Source of the DNA: an uncultured Saprospiraceae bacterium
GTDB lineage: Bacteria; Bacteroidota; Bacteroidia; Chitinophagales; Saprospiraceae
Direction of reading: 5' to 3'
NCBI GenBank assembly: GCA_964626595.1
Contig: CAZVFU010000005.1
Location: 4,892 to 68,891, forward strand
DNA: 64,000 nucleotides
Numbering within the stretch: position 1 is the stretch's first letter; each line of letters begins with the position of its first letter. Position numbers and translations under genes: made by a program. A model generated the notes under the pieces. The model worked only from the letters and a program-made list of their open reading frames with translations. It was not told where the DNA came from and searched no databases. Positions 3,280-55,402 of this stretch are shown here, in pieces.

Positions 3280-4617
3280 ATGAAAGAACTTCCCTCATAT
3301 AGGCACATTTTTAATCTCTCGTTTCCCATCATGTTGGGAAGTGCAGCTCAGAATTTAATTGCATTAACGGATTCTTTGTTTCTCTATCACTTTTCTGATG
3401 TGGACTTCGCCGCTATTGGGCTGGTTAGCGTATTTTATCTGACGATTAATGCAATTGGCTTTGGTTTCTCTAAGGGTGGGCAGATCATGATGGCAAGACG
3501 GTTTGGCGAGAAAAACTTTCTTCTGCTTGGCAAGACGTTCCGAATGCTGTTTTTCTTCGAGTTGCTGCTCGCTGCAGGTATGTTTCTTTTTCTCTGGTAT
3601 GGAACCCCCTGGCTTTTCAAACTCTTAATTCAATCCAATGAAGTGTACGACCGGTGCTTAGATTATCTGGTTCATCGCTCGTGGGGTGTGTTTTTTGCGT
3701 ATGCGGGTTTATGTATGATGGCTTTGTATATGGGTATTTCCAGATCCAAATTTATCATTGTAAATACGGTCGTGCTTGCCATAGTCAACATATTTCTGGA
3801 TTACGTTTTAATATTCGGTCACTGGGGATTCCCGGAGTGGGGGATAAAAGGGGCAGGCCTGGCCAGTAGCTCCTCGGAAGCCGTAGCAGTTCTGTTGTTT
3901 CTGGCTTATGCCCTGTATGACAAAAAACTACGTCCTATGCAACTCTGGAATTGGGGTCGAGTAAAACTCAATTTGCTTCAAAGTATTTTTAGAATTGCAT
4001 CTCCAATAGTTATTCAATATGCAGTTGGAGTAGGAAGCTGGTTTGTTTTCTTTTTATTGATTGAAAAAATGGGAGAGGAGCCGCTGGCCATAACAAATCT
4101 AGGGCGAATAATCTACCTGGGATTGAGCATTCCTTGTTGGGGGTTTGCTTCCGGAGTGAATACCCTGGTCAGCAATGCTATAGGACAGGGGCACCCCAAA
4201 CTAGTTCTTCCAATTATCAGAAGAACAGCCTGGTTCACATTCCTTTTTACCGTTTTACTTGCTCTACCTGTTATTATTCTTCCTCAGTACGTACTTTATC
4301 CCCTATTTGGTCGGGAAGATATGGCTTTGTTTGTAGCCGCTCAGCCAGTCTTTTATGTCATATTACTTATTTTAATGACATTTTCTATAGCAAGCATATA
4401 CTTCAATGGCCTAAGTGGAACCGGGGCCACGCTCTTTGCTCTTAAAATGCAATCATCTACCGCTGTTGTTTATGTCGGCATTTTATTTTTTGCTATTCTT
4501 ATTCTGGATGTTTCACTCCCCTGGGCCTGGGCTATCGAAATCTTTTACTGGGTTTTGATATTTTTGTTATCCTTTTATTATCTCCGGACTGAAAAATGGA
4601 AAGATGTTGTATTCTAA
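3280..4617 (+). CDS. MATE family efflux transporter
   Basis: 445 aa and about 12 predicted TM helices. The N-terminal pattern (FNLSFPIMLGSAAQNLIALTDSLFL) and overall size are typical of MATE/NorM-like transporters. Confidence 0.8.
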   Translation: MKELPSYRHIFNLSFPIMLGSAAQNLIALTDSLFLYHFSDVDFAAIGLVSVFYLTINAIGFGFSKGGQIMMARRFGEKNFLLLGKTFRMLFFFELLLAAGMFLFLWYGTPWLFKLLIQSNEVYDRCLDYLVHRSWGVFFAYAGLCMMALYMGISRSKFIIVNTVVLAIVNIFLDYVLIFGHWGFPEWGIKGAGLASSSSEAVAVLLFLAYALYDKKLRPMQLWNWGRVKLNLLQSIFRIASPIVIQYAVGVGSWFVFFLLIEKMGEEPLAITNLGRIIYLGLSIPCWGFASGVNTLVSNAIGQGHPKLVLPIIRRTAWFTFLFTVLLALPVIILPQYVLYPLFGREDMALFVAAQPVFYVILLILMTFSIASIYFNGLSGTGATLFALKMQSSTAVVYVGILFFAILILDVSLPWAWAIEIFYWVLIFLLSFYYLRTEKWKDVVF

Positions 4618-8369: not shown

Positions 8370-8536
8370 TGGGCGTGTCCGCCTGCCGGCGGACCGGGCT
8401 ATTCGCTCATAGTCAGGGCTCTATGTGCCGGCATCCGTATGGCTGCGCAGGGCTTCCTTTCGGTCGCCTTCTCGCTTTACGGCTGCTTCGTCACCTACAG
8501 CCCTGCCTGCCGCTGCTATCCCTCACGCAGGGGGGA
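8370..8536 (+). repeat. GC-rich hairpin-dense intergenic element, copy A
   Basis: It starts TGGGCGTGTCC. A perfect 7-bp hairpin follows (GTCCGCC tgcc GGCGGAC, 8377-8394), then CCGGGCTATTCGCT and a GC-rich interior with further stems (CAGGGCT...AGCCCTG). It ends GCTGCTATCCCTCACGCAGGGG. The same architecture occurs at 30480-30703 (-), 39904-40079 (+) and 55105-55295 (-). Confidence 0.6.
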
Positions 8537-11128: not shown

Positions 11129-14100
11129 ATGAAGAATAACGATAATATCTGGGTCGGAACAAAAGATCTAAATGGTGATAAAGAATTCGTGGAGAATAGT
11201 AAAAAAGAATTCTTTGAATTGCCCGTGGCAAACGAACTGTCTAAGGACGAATCAGAGTCCGGCCTTAAATCAAATCGGCGAGACTTTCTGAAATACCTGG
11301 GGTTTGGTCTGGGTGCAGCCACAGTTGCTGCGGCTTGTGAAACTCCTGTACGTCGAGCTATACCTTATGTAAACAAACCGGATGCGATAGTTCCCGGTGT
11401 GGCTAACTATTATGCTTCAAGTTTTGTGAATGGCTCTGACTTCTTACCCGTATTGGTTAAGACTCGAGAGGGCCGTCCTATTAAGATCGAAGGGAATAAG
11501 CAATCACCACTTACAGAGGGAGGTACAAGTGCTCGCGCCCAAGCCTCTGTTTTAGAACTGTACGATTCTACGCGGGTTAAGAGCCCGGGTAAAATTAAGG
11601 GTACTTCAGTTGATAAAATTTCCTGGGCGGATCTGGATAAAAAGATAGGGGAGAAGCTAACGACGAATTCTAAAGTGAGAATTGTAGCTGGTTCAAACTA
11701 CAGCCCTTCTATAAAATCAGCATTCAACGAGTTCAAGAAAAAGTATCCCAATTCGAAATGGGTTAGTTACGATGCAAGTTCCAACTCCGCCTTGCTTTTA
11801 GCCAATGAAAAAGACTTCGGTCAAAAAGCAGTACCTAATTACCGCTTTGATGAAGCGGATGTGGTAATCAATTTTGGGGCTGACTTTTTGGGGAGCTGGA
11901 TATCTCCAGTGGAATATGCTAAACAGTGGAGTAAGAAACGGAAAGTAAAAGACTACAAAAAGCCCGAGATTTCCAGAATGATTGCTTTTGAATCGTTTAT
12001 GTCGTTGACAGGATCAAATGCAGATAGTCGCGTACTTATAAAACCATCTGAACAAGGCTTGGCCATTGCTAAATTGCATAATGAAATTGCACGAGCAAAA
12101 GGCGGAAGTACAGTAAGTCTTGATGGTCAGTTGAGCTCTGAAAAGGTAGAAAAGGGTGTAAAAGCTGCAGCTAAAGACTTACTTGAAGCTAGCCGGGCTG
12201 GGAAGAAATCACTCGTTGTATCCGGTTCGAATAATACTGCTGAACAACAGTTAGTGAATCACATGAACTATTTGCTCGGCAATTATGGCTCAACAATTCG
12301 ATGGGATCGGAAAACCAATATTAGCCAATCAATAGATGCTGAAATGAATGCACTTATTGATGAGGTGAAAGCTGGGAAAATCGATGCCATTATTTTTGCC
12401 GATGGTGTCAATCCCGTTTACAGCCACCCTCGCGGAGCTGAATTGAAAAAAGGATTGTCTAAAATAGATCTGTCTATTTCGACAAGCATCTTACCTAATG
12501 AAACATTTAGTGCTTGTTCATGGGCGGCTCCTGAACCCCATTATCTTGAATCCTGGGGCGATGCAGAACCCAAAACAGGTCATTTCGCATTTGTTCAGCC
12601 TACCATTTCACCTTTGTTCGATTCCCGCAATATGATTACTTCGCTTCTGAGTTGGAGTGGAAAAGAAGGGAGTGAGTCTGAGGACGCTACTGAATATGCG
12701 TATCAATATATCCGAAGTGTTTGGGAGAAAAATGTATTTCCAAGTCAGAGTGAATTTATGAGCTTCCGCTCATTCTGGGATAATGCACTGCATGAAGGCT
12801 TTTATGAATTGCCTGAATCTGCAAATCAAGTTGTTTATGCAGGATCTGTCAGTGGTTTGGGTAATAAAATAAATAGTCCGGTTTCTTCTGGTCTTGAAAT
12901 AGCCTTTTTTGAAACTGTAAATATGGGTGACGGCTCTTATGCTAATAACCCATGGTTGCAAGAAATGCCCGACCCCTTAGTTAGAACGGTATGGGATAAC
13001 TGCTTGAATATTCCTGTAGAATGGGATGGTGGAAACAGTATTGATGGTTGGAAAAACCTGAATGATGGAGATATCGTTTCTATTTCAAATTCTGCAGCAG
13101 AGAAAGATGTTACTGTGGTTCAGCAATATGGAATGAAAAACGATACTGTAGCCCTAGCTATTGGATATGGTCGCGAAGTGGCGGGAAGGTCCGGAGCAGG
13201 AGTTGGTGTGAATGTTTATCCTATGCTATCTCTAGATTCTGATGGCAATGTGCAGTATTTTTCTTCTATTCAGGTTAGTGATAAAAAAGGAGTTGATAAA
13301 TCCTTTGCAAGCGTTCAGTATCATCACACTTTCGGTGTATCCGATAAGGACCCGGAATCTGGAGAAACTATAAATGTCGATGAAAAAGCGATTGTTACGC
13401 TCTCAGAAGGGTATCAGGGTTCAATAACTGACCGAACGATTATACGACACGCAGATGCTTCCCAGCTAGAAAAAGCTGTACATGATTTAGAACATGAACG
13501 TGAACATCATCAGCACCTCAATGAACAATCCCTGTATCCCGGGCATGAAGACTTGTACAATAAGGGACATAAGTGGGAGTTGAGTGTAGATCTCAGTGCC
13601 TGTATTGGTTGCGGTGCTTGTCAGGTAGCTTGCATATCTGAAAATAACGTTCCTGTAGTGGGTAAGAGTGAAGTTCGTAAACATCATGAGATGACATGGC
13701 TTCGCATTGATCGTTATTTTTATGGTGATTTTGACAGTCCCAATACCGCTTATCAACCTATGATGTGCCAACATTGTGATAATGCTCCTTGCGAAAATGT
13801 TTGCCCTGTAGCTGCAACAAATCACAGTAGTGAAGGTCTGAATCAAATGACATACAATCGATGTATAGGTACGCGATATTGTGCAAATAATTGTCCGTAT
13901 AAAGTTCGTCGATTTAATTGGCTGGACTATACAACGGCTGACCTTTGGGGATTAAATGAGAATAAGGTATTTGATGGAGAATCAGAACCGTTTTATGCAG
14001 AAAACCTAACGCGAATGGTTCTTAATCCGGACGTTACGGTTCGAACCAGAGGCGTAATCGAAAAGTGTAGTTTTTGTGTTCAGCGCATTCAGGAAGGAAA

Positions 14101-30479: not shown

Positions 30480-30703
30480 GCTCGGCGGGTGGCCGGGGTA
30501 GGGGTAGTAGCGGCCCGCCGACTTCTGAGGCGGCGGGGTCTCGGCCATTGAAATTTTAGCTTTGAATGAAAAGATTTTGGGTTTGAAGCAGATCTTTTTA
30601 GTTATCAAATCCAGGCCGAGACGAAACAAGGTGCACCCGCGAATGGCCCGACCGCGAGCTGCGGGGCTGGCCTGAGAAGTTGCTAAAGCTCGCGGGACCC
30701 CTA
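30480..30703 (-). repeat. GC-rich hairpin-dense intergenic element, copy B (minus orientation, with an AT-rich internal insertion)
   Basis: The reverse complement starts AGGGGTCCCGCGAGC. It has a hairpin CCGCGAGC...GCTCGCGG (30652-30695), then TCGGGCCATTCGCG, and ends GCTACTACCCCTACCCCGG. A 9-bp inverted repeat GTCTCGGCC/GGCCGAGAC (30538-30546 / 30614-30622) brackets a 67-nt AT-rich segment. Confidence 0.55.
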
Positions 30704-30734
30704 TAAAAAAAAAGCCCTGCTAAAAAACAGGGCT
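30704..30734 (-). terminator. Rho-independent terminator of trxA
   Basis: On the minus strand, AGCCCTG ttttttag CAGGGCT is followed by a run of 9 T. It lies 22 nt after the trxA stop. Confidence 0.75.
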
Positions 30735-39700: not shown

Positions 39701-39888
39701 GGTGCCTCCGGAAACTGTTTTTTGATGTCAAAATGAAAAAATACCTGCATAAGCATGACGTGATGAGGGAGCTTAGCCATAGCTAAGAGACTAAAGAACA
39801 ACGAAGCTTACGCGCATATTTTACATTTAGACCATTTCGCATGAAATGATCGTTCACACGAAAGGATAGTTTTCGGATGTACCCTATA
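39696..39888. repeat. Element of about 190 nt bounded by 23-nt imperfect inverted repeats, followed by a T-run
   Basis: The left arm TATAGGGTGCCTCCGGAAACTGT (39696-39718) overlaps the E1-beta stop codon. The right arm is ATAGTTTTCGGATGTACCCTATA (39866-39888). About 19 of 23 positions are complementary, and TTTTTTTT follows. Confidence 0.5.
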
Positions 39889-39903
39889 TTTTTTTTAATC
39901 TTT

Positions 39904-40079
39904 TGGGCGTCTCCCGGCGCCTGGAATGCGCCGGGTCAGGCTGTCCATGGGTTCCGTCCTTCTGCGAGTATTCAGCACAGGAAAGTGTGCTGAATACTCG
40001 CTTCGGACTCGCCTCCCGGTCGCTATCCGACTAAAGTCGGCGCGCCCGATCGCGACCATTCCCATCCTTGACGCAAAGG
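39904..40079 (+). repeat. GC-rich hairpin-dense intergenic element, copy C
   Basis: It starts TGGGCGTCTCC. A perfect 8-bp hairpin CCCGGCGC ctggaat GCGCCGGG (39913-39935) is followed by TCAGGCTGTCCAT and a perfect 16-bp hairpin (39964-40001). It ends CATTCCCATCCTTGACGCAAAGG. Confidence 0.6.
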
Positions 40080-40408
40080 TTTGAGGAAATTTTCTCCTTT
40101 AGTCTGGAATAAATGCCTTTTGGGATTCTATGCCCAAATGAAGTCCTCTCAATAAAGATTTTTCATCCGAGATGCTAGAAAAATCTTCGTACCTCGCGAA
40201 AGCTAGTATCTTACTTCGCTGTCATCATGGGGTTTAACGAGAACCTATTTGCTGTTAACTCCTCAGTATTGTTTTATACCAACTAAAGGATAATTATAGT
40301 TAACTCCGCTTTCGCAAAGCTCAACCAGATTTCCCTCTGATTTTGGGAGCCAGGACCCATTCCACTGATTTTATTTAATCTCCCTGTGATTAAATGATTG
40401 AGATTACT

Positions 40409-40416
40409 TACATTTG
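40409..40416 (+). promoter_or_regulatory. Candidate -7 promoter box (TAnnTTTG) upstream of the TonB-dependent receptor
   Basis: TACATTTG lies 26 nt before ATG 40442. Motif match only. Confidence 0.3.
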
Positions 40417-40441
40417 ATCAGGAAACACACACCCAACACCT

Positions 40442-55104: not shown

Positions 55105-55295
55105 CCGTGAGCGATGCGAAGTAGTGCCGCCCAAAAGGCGGCAGATCCGCAGTTGGGCCGTGTAGCGTTGGCCGGGAGCCGAGTGAAGCCCCGGAATCCC
55201 GAGGATCGCTGCAATCGATCTCGTGGATGGAGGGGGTATCTGAACGAGCTACGTAGCGTAGCGACGCGAGGAGCGAAGCCCGAGCGGCACGGCCA
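55105..55295 (-). repeat. GC-rich hairpin-dense intergenic element, copy D (minus orientation)
   Basis: The reverse complement starts TGGCCGTGCCGCTCGGGCTTCGCT. It contains hairpins GCTACG cta CGTAGC and TGCCGCC tttt GGGCGGCA, and it ends CTACTTCGCATCGCTCACGG. It lies 32 nt downstream of the tRNA-His 3' end on the same strand. Confidence 0.55.
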
Positions 55296-55327
55296 GAAAA
55301 TAAAAATGAAAAAGTGGGATAATCAAG

Positions 55328-55402
55328 GGTGGCTAGTCGGAATTGAACCGACGACCTCTAGAACCACAATCTAGCGCTCTAACCGACTGAGCTATAGCCA
55401 CC
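55328..55402 (-). tRNA. tRNA-His (anticodon GTG)
   Basis: I folded the cloverleaf by hand. The acceptor stem is GTGGCTA/TAGCCAC with the His-specific extra G-1 paired to C73. The D arm is GCTC/GAGC, the anticodon stem is CTAGA/TCTAG with loop TTGTGGT, and the T arm is GTCGG TTCAATT CCGAC. CCA is not encoded. Confidence 0.95.

Follow-up and report, generated by a model that had tools for sequence, protein, structure and literature searches.

Four GC-rich intergenic islands in a Saprospiraceae genome are diverged copies of an extended Flavo-1 element

A 64,000-nt stretch of DNA from an uncultured Saprospiraceae bacterium (contig CAZVFU010000005.1 of assembly GCA_964626595.1), hereafter the window, carries four GC-rich intergenic islands, designated A to D. 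These islands are real, diverged copies of one Bacteroidota-wide repeat. The element is a three-way junction with exact ends, which consists of a closing helix (P1), a side hairpin (P2), and a central hairpin (P3/P4). Within the family, the Rfam motif Flavo-1 (RF01705) makes up the central hairpin, and the window copies are an extended, diverged form of this motif for which we use the name extended Flavo-1 element. A preliminary description of the same DNA had noticed the islands but could not name a characterized family. The name became available through related copies, found elsewhere, that score above the Rfam threshold.

The window as a whole is 41.2% GC, and the islands reach 65% (A), 58% (B), 62% (C), and 65% (D), so that the impression of GC richness first gained by eye is borne out by computation. 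Sliding windows of 100 nt with at least 60% GC occur in the four islands, in a tRNA-Ser gene, and marginally in one stretch within an open reading frame (ORF; 3816-3916), and nowhere else. All four islands lie between ORFs or tRNA genes. The common architecture proposed for them is also sound, and it can be restated more sharply in terms of end-to-end pairing. From its 5' end, each copy has (T)GG and then a 5-nt strand that leads into a hairpin. YC and a second strand, of 3 nt and with a C after it, come next. Beyond the variable interior, the copy closes with A-Y, the complement of the shorter strand, a T, and the complement of the longer strand. The two 5-nt strands, which form P1, are exactly complementary in every copy (Table 1).

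There are departures from this scheme. Copy B lacks the 5' GG, which is present in its counterpart at the same site of a related genome (L214). Copy D, the most diverged, has no clear or convincing P2 hairpin, and its P3 can be placed in two ways, either as GCG (55267-55265) with CGC (55113-55111) or as the canonical-looking TCGGGC (55283-55278) with one mismatch. The perfect 16-bp hairpin previously noted in copy C is indeed there, as one of two inner hairpins, and the RNA fold of this copy has a z-score of -5.9. Pairing of the ends also refines the limits of the islands, which had been drawn correctly except for 3' ends that were 5-15 nt too long.

Direct comparison of the window copies gave no signal. 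Their MAFFT alignment has a mean column identity of only 52%, pairwise Smith-Waterman local alignments do not rise above shuffles (best z = 2.5), and a repeat search of the window found no repeat of 16 nt or more common to any of the islands. The preliminary description had staked the idea of a single family on the four copies aligning better than shuffled sequence, and by that measure the idea would fail. Evidence for family membership therefore had to come from outside the window. It is provided by metagenome copies, by a descriptor that rarely matches shuffled sequence, by same-site copies in relatives, and by compensatory changes in P1 and P3.

The descriptor specifies GG, P1, a closed hairpin, YC, P3, and Y at the 5' side and A-Y, P3', T, and P1' at the 3' side, with 20 block-shuffled windows serving as the control. 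In its strict form it finds copies A and C and yields 1 match per 20 shuffled windows. Dropping the rule that P2 be closed adds copy D (3 matches per 20 shuffled windows), and dropping the 5' GG rule adds copy B (5 matches per 20). Every descriptor match in the window coincides exactly with an island. Copy A is also matched by a profile hidden Markov model (HMM) built from the metagenome copies (nhmmer, E = 1.1e-7).

These results bear on the suspicion that the islands are unrelated GC-rich segments, such as separate RNAs, gene remnants, or foreign DNA, whose likeness arose by chance. Pairwise alignments equal to shuffles, the low column identity, and a blank Rfam result in the window are what this suspicion would predict. 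We give it almost no credence, however, and regard it as already ruled out. The descriptor falls exactly on all four islands and on few places in shuffles, the HMM matches copy A, copies B and C are kept in relatives together with the core motifs of the family, and P1 and P3 covary over 14 diverse copies, as described below.

A scan of species-representative genomes with the SMC protein placed the window organism in Saprospiraceae, Bacteroidota. Metagenome contigs of the same species (L001-L010) are 98-99.5% identical to the window and are too close for covariation analysis. The nearest genome (L047), a Saprospiraceae metagenome-assembled genome whose SMC is 72% identical, is syntenic with the window and has an A-type element in the corresponding position after smc (13578-13746), with a second copy 9 kb upstream. 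In a distant member of the family (L019; SMC 43% identical), an element again lies directly behind smc, here of the C-type (TGGGCGTCTCCC ... CATGGGTTC ... GACCATTCCGATCGTTGACGC), and a further copy has the P1 pair CCGTG/CACGG. Copies are numerous, with four in the 64-kb window and two in each of these 23.5-kb loci.

A search pattern derived from the window, L047, and L019 copies, TGGGCGTG-N110-140-CTATCCCTCACGC, recovered at least 119 stretches from metagenomes that represent soil, marine, peat, wastewater, and salt pond samples. Most of the matched contigs are 30-48% GC, and two matches in high-GC contigs look like chance. The family consensus is T GGGCGTG YCCC-(variable hairpin)-GGG TC GGGCTATCCGCTRCAAGTCC-(variable)-GGGCTTTCCGCTNCTATCCC T CACGC. 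A blastn search against plasmids revealed a short form of 78-83 nt in 57 plasmids of Bacteroides, Phocaeicola, Parabacteroides, and Butyricimonas, among them p5482 of B. thetaiotaomicron, in which P1 is GCGTT/AACGC. The 78-nt form is a discrete block, 80-92% identical, that occurs in many otherwise unrelated Bacteroidales plasmids. The earlier statement that similar repeats exist in other Bacteroidota was thus accurate. A literature search with the conserved sequence strings returned chance matches only, such as 16S primers.

The structure that was tested comprises P1, the P2 hairpin right after it, P3 (GGG/CCC followed by UA/UA and GC/GC, with fixed C-U, U-C, and C-U mismatches between these pairs), and P4 (AAGUCC/GGGCUU). 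Among 88 nonredundant copies, 77% of cells are paired. Shuffles give 70%, and sliding the partner strand lowers the value to 41-58%. For covariation, this set scores 0.225 versus 0.121, and 0.225 was reached by none of 500 shuffles. P4 exists as AAGUCC/GGGCUU, as AUCUUUU/AAAAGGAU, and as UUACUCC/GGGGUAA.

Because P1 and most of P3 are fixed by the search pattern, these helices were tested separately on 14 diverse copies, namely the four window copies, L019, L138b, L133b, plasmid copies, and same-site copies in related genomes. The blocks for this set were extracted by hand, which means that the test was not blind. In P1 and P3, 95.7% of cells are paired, and seven of the 10 pairs change on both sides while none changes on one side only. 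The covariation score was again reached by none of 500 shuffles, and the six different P1 sequences in the set are all paired. The earlier assertion that the position and pairing of stems are kept while their bases change is hence borne out by compensatory changes in P1 and P3. The element spans ~80-210 nt, of which tips account for up to ~100 nt. A covariance model built from copies with their variable parts excised misplaced the 3' ends, since real copies need long insertions, and it was not used.

The identity of the central hairpin emerged when the small plasmid loci and twenty small metagenome loci were compared with Rfam. Two of the metagenome loci exceeded the Flavo-1 gathering score of 42 bits (L161 at 49.7 bits and L164 at 48.4 bits), ten others scored 30-40 bits, and Bacteroides plasmid copies scored 32.6 and 25.2 bits. 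The model matches extend over the P3/P4 hairpin and are on the complement of the strand on which the islands were first described. Below, we call the two strands the Rfam strand and the described strand, respectively. No Flavo-1 match was obtained on the window copies, either at the gathering score or at E <= 10, when the whole window and a 221-nt slice around copy A were searched. An Rfam comparison, which the preliminary description had recommended, thus leaves the window copies themselves unmatched and identifies related copies that have the same ends. Because the window copies fall below Flavo-1 detection, their membership is indirect and runs through intermediate copies, namely those from which the HMM that matches copy A was built.

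At the sequence level, the arms of the family, when reverse-complemented (GGGAUAGCAGCGGAAAGCCC ... GGACUUGCAGCGGAUAGCCC), match the model consensus ccGAUuGaAGcGGAAauCC ... GauUguAgCGgAaAGCggG. Put the other way round, reverse-complementing the Flavo-1 model arms gives the consensus arms GGGCTATCCGCTGCAAGTCC and GGGCTTTCCGCTNCTATCCC. The hallmark of Flavo-1, arms of the GAUUG-AGCGGAAA type together with fixed internal mismatches, is present in the family. Copy A keeps GGGCTATTCGC ... CCGCTGCTATCCC, copy B keeps GGGCCATTCGC ... GCCGCTACTACCCC, and copies C and D keep the pairing pattern with compensatory changes. Both the motif and the family belong to the same phylum, are intergenic, and have many copies per genome, and the Saprospiraceae host agrees with the taxonomic range of Flavo-1. 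They differ in that the extended element adds P1 and P2 to form the three-way junction and has much longer, hypervariable tips, whereas in Rfam the opposite strand is modeled and the motif is classed as 'Gene; sRNA'.

Flavo-1 was proposed in 2010 as a probable Bacteroidetes RNA that is not cis-regulatory (PMC2864571), and it is among the most abundant small RNA (sRNA) families of Rfam, with no assigned function (PMC9029176). In the transcriptome of Flavobacterium (F. psychrophilum), Flavo-1 matches are sense, antisense, or untranscribed (PMC9723704). The motif has stood since 2010 with no function, no defined ends, and no settled strand. Our results indicate that, outside Flavobacteriia, Flavo-1 forms no more than the central arm of a bigger structure, a three-way junction that is closed by a covarying helix, so that the ends of the element are exactly defined. 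Copies of this sort escape the current Rfam model, and genome annotations consequently undercount the family.

Individual sites can be compared with those in three related contigs. In L212, L213, and L214, whose pyruvate dehydrogenase E1-beta proteins are 92-95% identical to that of the window, the region corresponding to 28-50 kb of the window is syntenic and elements occupy the B and C sites (Table 1). Between the window and these genomes, the cores of the elements (5' end, middle block, and 3' end) are 82-100% identical, flanking intergenic DNA is 22-43% identical, and the P2 and inner hairpin tips are 12-55% identical. Tips in the relatives are unrelated in sequence, yet each is a perfect or near-perfect stem of 8-17 bp. 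In L214, one tip has the center CATAGAGCTCTATG, a loop-less palindrome, and another stem contains three A-C mismatches. The hairpin arms have no other copy among the analyzed sequences. Judged from these comparisons, the core is strongly constrained at each locus, and the tips change as fast as neutral DNA but stay palindromic. Occupied sites are kept across genus-level divergence, as for copy A in L047.

The preliminary description had stated that each of the four copies lies just 3' of the preceding gene and is co-oriented with it. This pattern is not a rule for the family at large. Over 94 nonredundant contexts, the upstream gene is co-oriented with the element 48 times and opposite 34 times (p = 0.15), and the spacers involved are of all types, namely tandem-sense (20), tandem-antisense (11), convergent (18), and divergent (14). 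What survives is that each of the four copies in the window has the sense orientation relative to its upstream gene, and that a clear family-wide bias exists among copies within 30 nt of a stop codon, in which the 5' end of the element faces the stop in 31 cases and the 3' end in 8 (p = 3e-4). The suggestion that the copies are 3'-untranslated region (UTR) or trailer RNAs fares similarly. It suits copy A, which follows smc closely in the sense orientation, but family-wide orientation is mixed and copy B lies behind a conserved trxA terminator, which means that copy B is not a simple 3' UTR. The terminator hairpin and T-run are also present in L212 and L214. The genes adjoining the copies are functionally diverse.

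The flanks of the element are T-rich upstream and A-rich downstream, with no direct target-site duplication. T occupies the three positions before GGGCG in 76%, 86%, and 100% of copies, the last value being fixed by the search pattern, and A is found at positions +1 to +3 past the element in 44-55% of copies and T in 15-20%. An intrinsic terminator was rejected because a T-tract does not directly follow the element, and because copy B has a separate terminator upstream of it. The Bacteroidetes promoter box is TAnnTTTG. A promoter reading of the upstream TTTG was rejected as well, because A at -6 and T at -5 do not fit this box and a start there would cut P1. HDV-like, hammerhead, twister, hatchet, and tRNA-like RNAs have no Rfam match and an unfit pairing topology. 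In the transcriptome supplements for B. thetaiotaomicron, no mapped transcription start or annotated sRNA occurs at the p5482 copy.

We tentatively favor, with somewhat less than even confidence, the explanation that this is a long-lived interspersed structured repeat of the REP/ERIC kind that is recognized through its folded core and is often passively transcribed. The functional core would be the junction and the lower central hairpin, with its fixed pyrimidine-pyrimidine mismatches and one conserved U-G, and might serve as a recognition site for a putative protein that acts in trans and binds the strand in its folded, single-stranded form. The tips of the hairpins would carry no information, turning over at the neutral rate and being remade as near-perfect palindromes, probably by template-switch-type events in replication. 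Template switching during replication creates and repairs hairpins in a single event, which would explain why the tips are both hypervariable and perfect. Copies presumably spread by a DNA-level process, as suggested by their occurrence as a discrete block in unrelated plasmids, in both orientations, and in all spacer types. They would then persist at fixed intergenic sites in the manner of REP, REPIN, and ERIC. A sense copy just behind a gene, as with copy A, would be transcribed as a 3' trailer, in which the stable GC-rich junction could hinder 3'-to-5' decay or read-through.

Several observations weigh against this explanation. The evidence on strand and molecule is split three ways, between the described strand, the Rfam strand, and neither. 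A U-G pair recurs at the same P4 position in three versions of the helix (G-U 39 versus A-C 3), which points to an RNA read from the described strand. The Rfam strand folds more stably in 68 of the 88 copies, by a mean of 3.5 kcal/mol, and the conserved mismatches that are pyrimidine-pyrimidine on the described strand are purine-purine on the Rfam strand. Unpaired purines are usual for RNA. Neither strand is favored by the isolated mismatches of the P2 stems, G-U and A-C at 9 each, nor by the U-G of A-type copies set against the A-C of same-site C-type copies in relatives. In addition, no binding protein, transposase, or partner gene was found, and neighboring genes are diverse. A tblastn search for RAYT/Y1 genes in 2.6 Mb of loci found no match, although the query (an IS200 TnpA sequence) was approximate, which makes this a weak test. 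Because no insertion or empty-site polymorphism and no target-site duplication were seen, mobility is inferred from the modular distribution alone. Finally, the strong conservation of cores at the same sites fits a dedicated host RNA at least as well.

Such an RNA could be a cis-acting structure in 3' UTRs or trailers that is selected on the described strand and controls 3'-end formation, RNA stability, or a downstream event. We consider this unlikely, but it is the contender that we take most seriously. It would account for the sense orientation of all four window copies, the bias within 30 nt of stop codons, the P4 wobble, a U-G pair that closes P2 in 28 of 88 copies, and the strong purifying selection on cores in relatives. 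Because P1 joins ends that can be more than 100 nt apart, a single-stranded fold is also required. The same explanation must nevertheless contend with the weak overall orientation bias, the 14 copies in divergent spacers, the position of copy B behind a conserved terminator, and adjoining genes that have no common function. Published transcriptomes lack a consistent sense signal, and the strand that folds more stably is the opposite one, which is also the strand that Rfam models. The variable stems carry no mark of RNA-level selection either, since isolated mismatches in P2 stems, which otherwise comprise 671 Watson-Crick pairs, are G-U in 9 cases and A-C in 9. When G-T and A-C mismatches are equally rare in near-perfect stems, transitions in a DNA palindrome would be their expected source, and not selection on one RNA strand. 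Without an excess of G-U over A-C, RNA-level selection in these stems is unsupported.

An alternative that places the selected RNA on the other strand holds that the copies are independent sRNA genes whose G-A-rich internal loops bind a protein or act in trans. This agrees with the strand modeled by Rfam, with the greater stability of that strand, and with the fact that all conserved unpaired or mismatched positions are purines on it. Inspection by eye further showed that A-type copies carry U-G and that same-site C-type copies in relatives carry A-C, and A-C on the described strand becomes G-U on the Rfam strand. However, the conserved P4 wobble would become an A-C mismatch, no promoter or terminator motif occurs at a fixed distance, and the flanks have the form TTT...AAA on either strand. 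Flavo-1 matches are often untranscribed (PMC9723704), the B. thetaiotaomicron plasmid copy has neither an annotated start nor an annotated sRNA, and a trans-acting sRNA would not normally be expected in hundreds of highly diverged copies per genome. We regard this alternative as improbable.

Equally improbable in our judgment is an active nonautonomous transposon, either a miniature inverted-repeat transposable element (MITE) or an element of the IS200/IS605 or RAYT type, whose transposase recognizes folded ends in single-stranded DNA. The sharp ends with TTT conserved just upstream, the occurrence of the element as a discrete module in unrelated plasmids and in contexts of integrative and conjugative elements (ICEs), and stems that behave as DNA palindromes are the features expected of such a transposon. 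The same can be said of the presence of several subtypes in one genome and of one subtype at different loci in distant genera. Opposed to this are the high divergence of copies within a genome, which gives no sign of a recent burst, and the occupation of the same sites, with selected cores, across genus-level divergence. The four P1 sequences in one genome fit a need for pairing and not a transposase-specific end, and the analyzed loci yielded no target-site duplication, empty site, partner transposase, or insertion sequence carrying the element ends.

Between these two alternatives and a cis-acting RNA in likelihood, and thus still rather unlikely, is a new kind of DNA-level structured repeat. 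In this proposal, the junction scaffold would be recognized as single-stranded DNA or RNA by a putative enzyme, and the tips would be actively remade as perfect palindromes. The element would then be a programmed or strongly favored site of template switching or hairpin processing, possibly the footprint of a mobilization system analogous to but distinct from RAYT/REPIN.

Coordinates of the copies and of the features beside them are collected in Table 1. The neighboring genes had been assigned correctly as smc, trxA, E1-beta, and tRNA-His. Copy A is flanked by the genes for SMC and ThyA (thymidylate synthase) and copy B by those for thioredoxin and a peptidase of family M32. Copy C is preceded by the gene for pyruvate dehydrogenase E1-beta, starting 204 nt past its stop codon, and copy D starts 32 nt past tRNA-His. 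Two copies lie on each strand of the window although its GC skew keeps one sign throughout.

Table 1. Positions of the extended Flavo-1 elements, their parts, and adjacent features (window coordinates unless a related genome is named)
Feature	Position	Strand	Description
Copy A	8370-8528	+	159 nt, canonical 'A-type'; starts 20 nt past the smc stop codon
Copy A, parts			P1 GCGTG 8373-8377 with CACGC 8524-8528; P2 hairpin 8378-8393; linker CC 8394-8395; P3 GGG 8396-8398 with CCC 8520-8522
Copy B	30495-30703	-	~209 nt; P1 GGGGT 30701-30697 with ACCCC 30499-30495
Copy B, parts			P2 CCGCGAGC/GCTCGCGG; middle block TCGGGCCATTCGC; AT-rich tip closed by GTCTCGGCC/GGCCGAGAC
trxA intrinsic terminator	30705-30734	-	AGCCCTG...CAGGGCT and T-run, between trxA and copy B
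Copy C	39904-40074	+	171 nt, 'C-type'; P1 GCGTC 39907-39911 with GACGC 40070-40074
Copy C, parts			P2 CCCGGCGC/GCGCCGGG; P3 AGG/CCT; two inner hairpins, one a perfect 16-bp stem
Copy D	55105-55295	-	191 nt, most diverged; P1 CCGTG 55292-55288 with CACGG 55109-55105
tRNA-His	55327-55401	-	ARAGORN and Rfam tRNA; gene upstream of copy D
Same-site copy of B, L212	2408-2692		
Same-site copy of B, L214	1616-1889		
Same-site copy of C, L212	10982-11180		
Same-site copy of C, L214	10982-11200		

Short ORFs called inside the copies had been set aside as artefacts, and this judgment holds because the same regions are wholly different in sequence and length in close relatives. Calls at 55114-55374 (+) of the window, 11078-11248 of L212, and 11082-11243 of L214 correspond to 86, 56, and 53 aa. 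They vary in strand, length, and sequence among relatives, and one runs antisense over tRNA-His. Such calls arise artefactually from GC-rich DNA. Copy C lies in the spacer that separates E1-beta from the next gene, and this spacer measures 741 nt in the window versus 306-316 nt in L212-L214. Of the additional sequence in the window, ~190 nt fall between the E1-beta stop codon and copy C (39701-39903), and more follows the copy (40075-40441).

Other contexts were encountered among copies outside the window. In the B. fragilis plasmid Q1F2-p2 (L211, 2484-2562), the short form begins within the TAG stop codon that ends a serine recombinase gene, at its G, and leaves no spacer. One subfamily is located directly 3' of a gene that, by eye and without a Pfam check, we take to be RteC-like (L091, L123, L159, L165, L168, L172, L173, L178, L185, and L205), and this location suggests that the subfamily is carried on CTnDOT-type conjugative elements. 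Three of these loci have several copies (L159 three, L185 three, and L178 two). In L152 (1-1366 and 1930-2068), an element and a 16S rRNA gene are ~560 nt apart, with the element upstream and both in the same orientation.

In L175 (680-827, minus strand), a complete element has an incomplete additional 5' end (TGGGCGTGTGCGTGACGTTGGTCAGT) immediately before it, which may be left over from a nested or tandem insertion. Metagenome contigs repeatedly contain TCCCGATAGCTATCGGGA, a perfect palindrome of 18 nt, together with variants that fit TCCCGAT-N4-6-ATCGGGA. These sequences are found in the variable hairpins of elements (L117 at 932, L134 at 2686, and L186 at 143) and outside elements (L099 at 1308, L146 at 8676, and L166 at 8084). 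This palindrome looks like a second, smaller repeat that is able to sit within the first.

The persistence of near-invariant cores at the same sites across genus-level divergence speaks in favor of a selected function, or of a specific recognition event at the least. The tips, in turn, provide a natural example of apparently "compensatory" stem evolution that may come from DNA replication and not from selection on RNA, and their behavior is a warning for covariation-based RNA discovery. Short copies reside on Bacteroides plasmids that are conjugative and, in ICE-like DNA, beside rteC. They are present in genetically tractable hosts in which the function of Flavo-1 can be tested.

Among known systems, the REP/BIME elements and REPINs of Enterobacteria and Pseudomonas resemble the extended Flavo-1 element in being abundant, extragenic, and palindromic, in often lying at the 3' ends of genes, and in remaining at the same sites for long periods. 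REP elements fold as single strands and can stabilize upstream mRNA when transcribed. They differ in that a REP is a hairpin of 20-40 nt with a GTAG or CGTC tag and has near-identical copies within a genome, whereas the extended Flavo-1 element is a three-way junction of 80-210 nt with a conserved mismatched helix and tips that are wholly different from copy to copy. Moreover, its two conserved arms are direct repeats and not inverted ones. Membership in the REP/REPIN class was rejected because the window copies are not mutually alignable, are too long, and have CGTG or CGTC within the paired P1 rather than unpaired. The CGTC-tagged REPs in particular were rejected because they have stems of 8-9 bp, loops of 4-5 nt, and an unpaired tag (PMC3733652).

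Transposable elements provide a second comparison. A MITE was rejected because the sole terminal inverted repeat is the 5-bp P1, which has four sequences in one genome, and because there is no target-site duplication. With regard to the PATEs of IS200/IS605, T is conserved before GGGCG, two copies lie on each strand of the window, and the TnpA query, a weak test, was unmatched. The attC sites of integrons are similar in that structure is kept over sequence, single-stranded DNA is folded, and specific unpaired bases are recognized. They are distinguished by R and L boxes (GTTRRRY), cassette arrays beside an integrase, and a length of 57-141 nt, none of which applies here.

ERIC/IRU elements of Enterobacteria offer the closest analogy for how the extended Flavo-1 element may work. 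ERIC is an imperfect palindrome of ~127 bp that is exclusively intergenic, occupies the same sites in different species, has internal insertion sites, and occurs in either orientation, and its effects on mRNA decay depend on that orientation. There is no sequence relationship between the two, and ERIC belongs to another phylum. ERIC also lacks a junction made of a closing helix and a side hairpin, and it lacks hypervariable, perfect tips. A conserved scaffold that carries hypervariable perfect hairpins is the most unusual feature of the extended Flavo-1 element.

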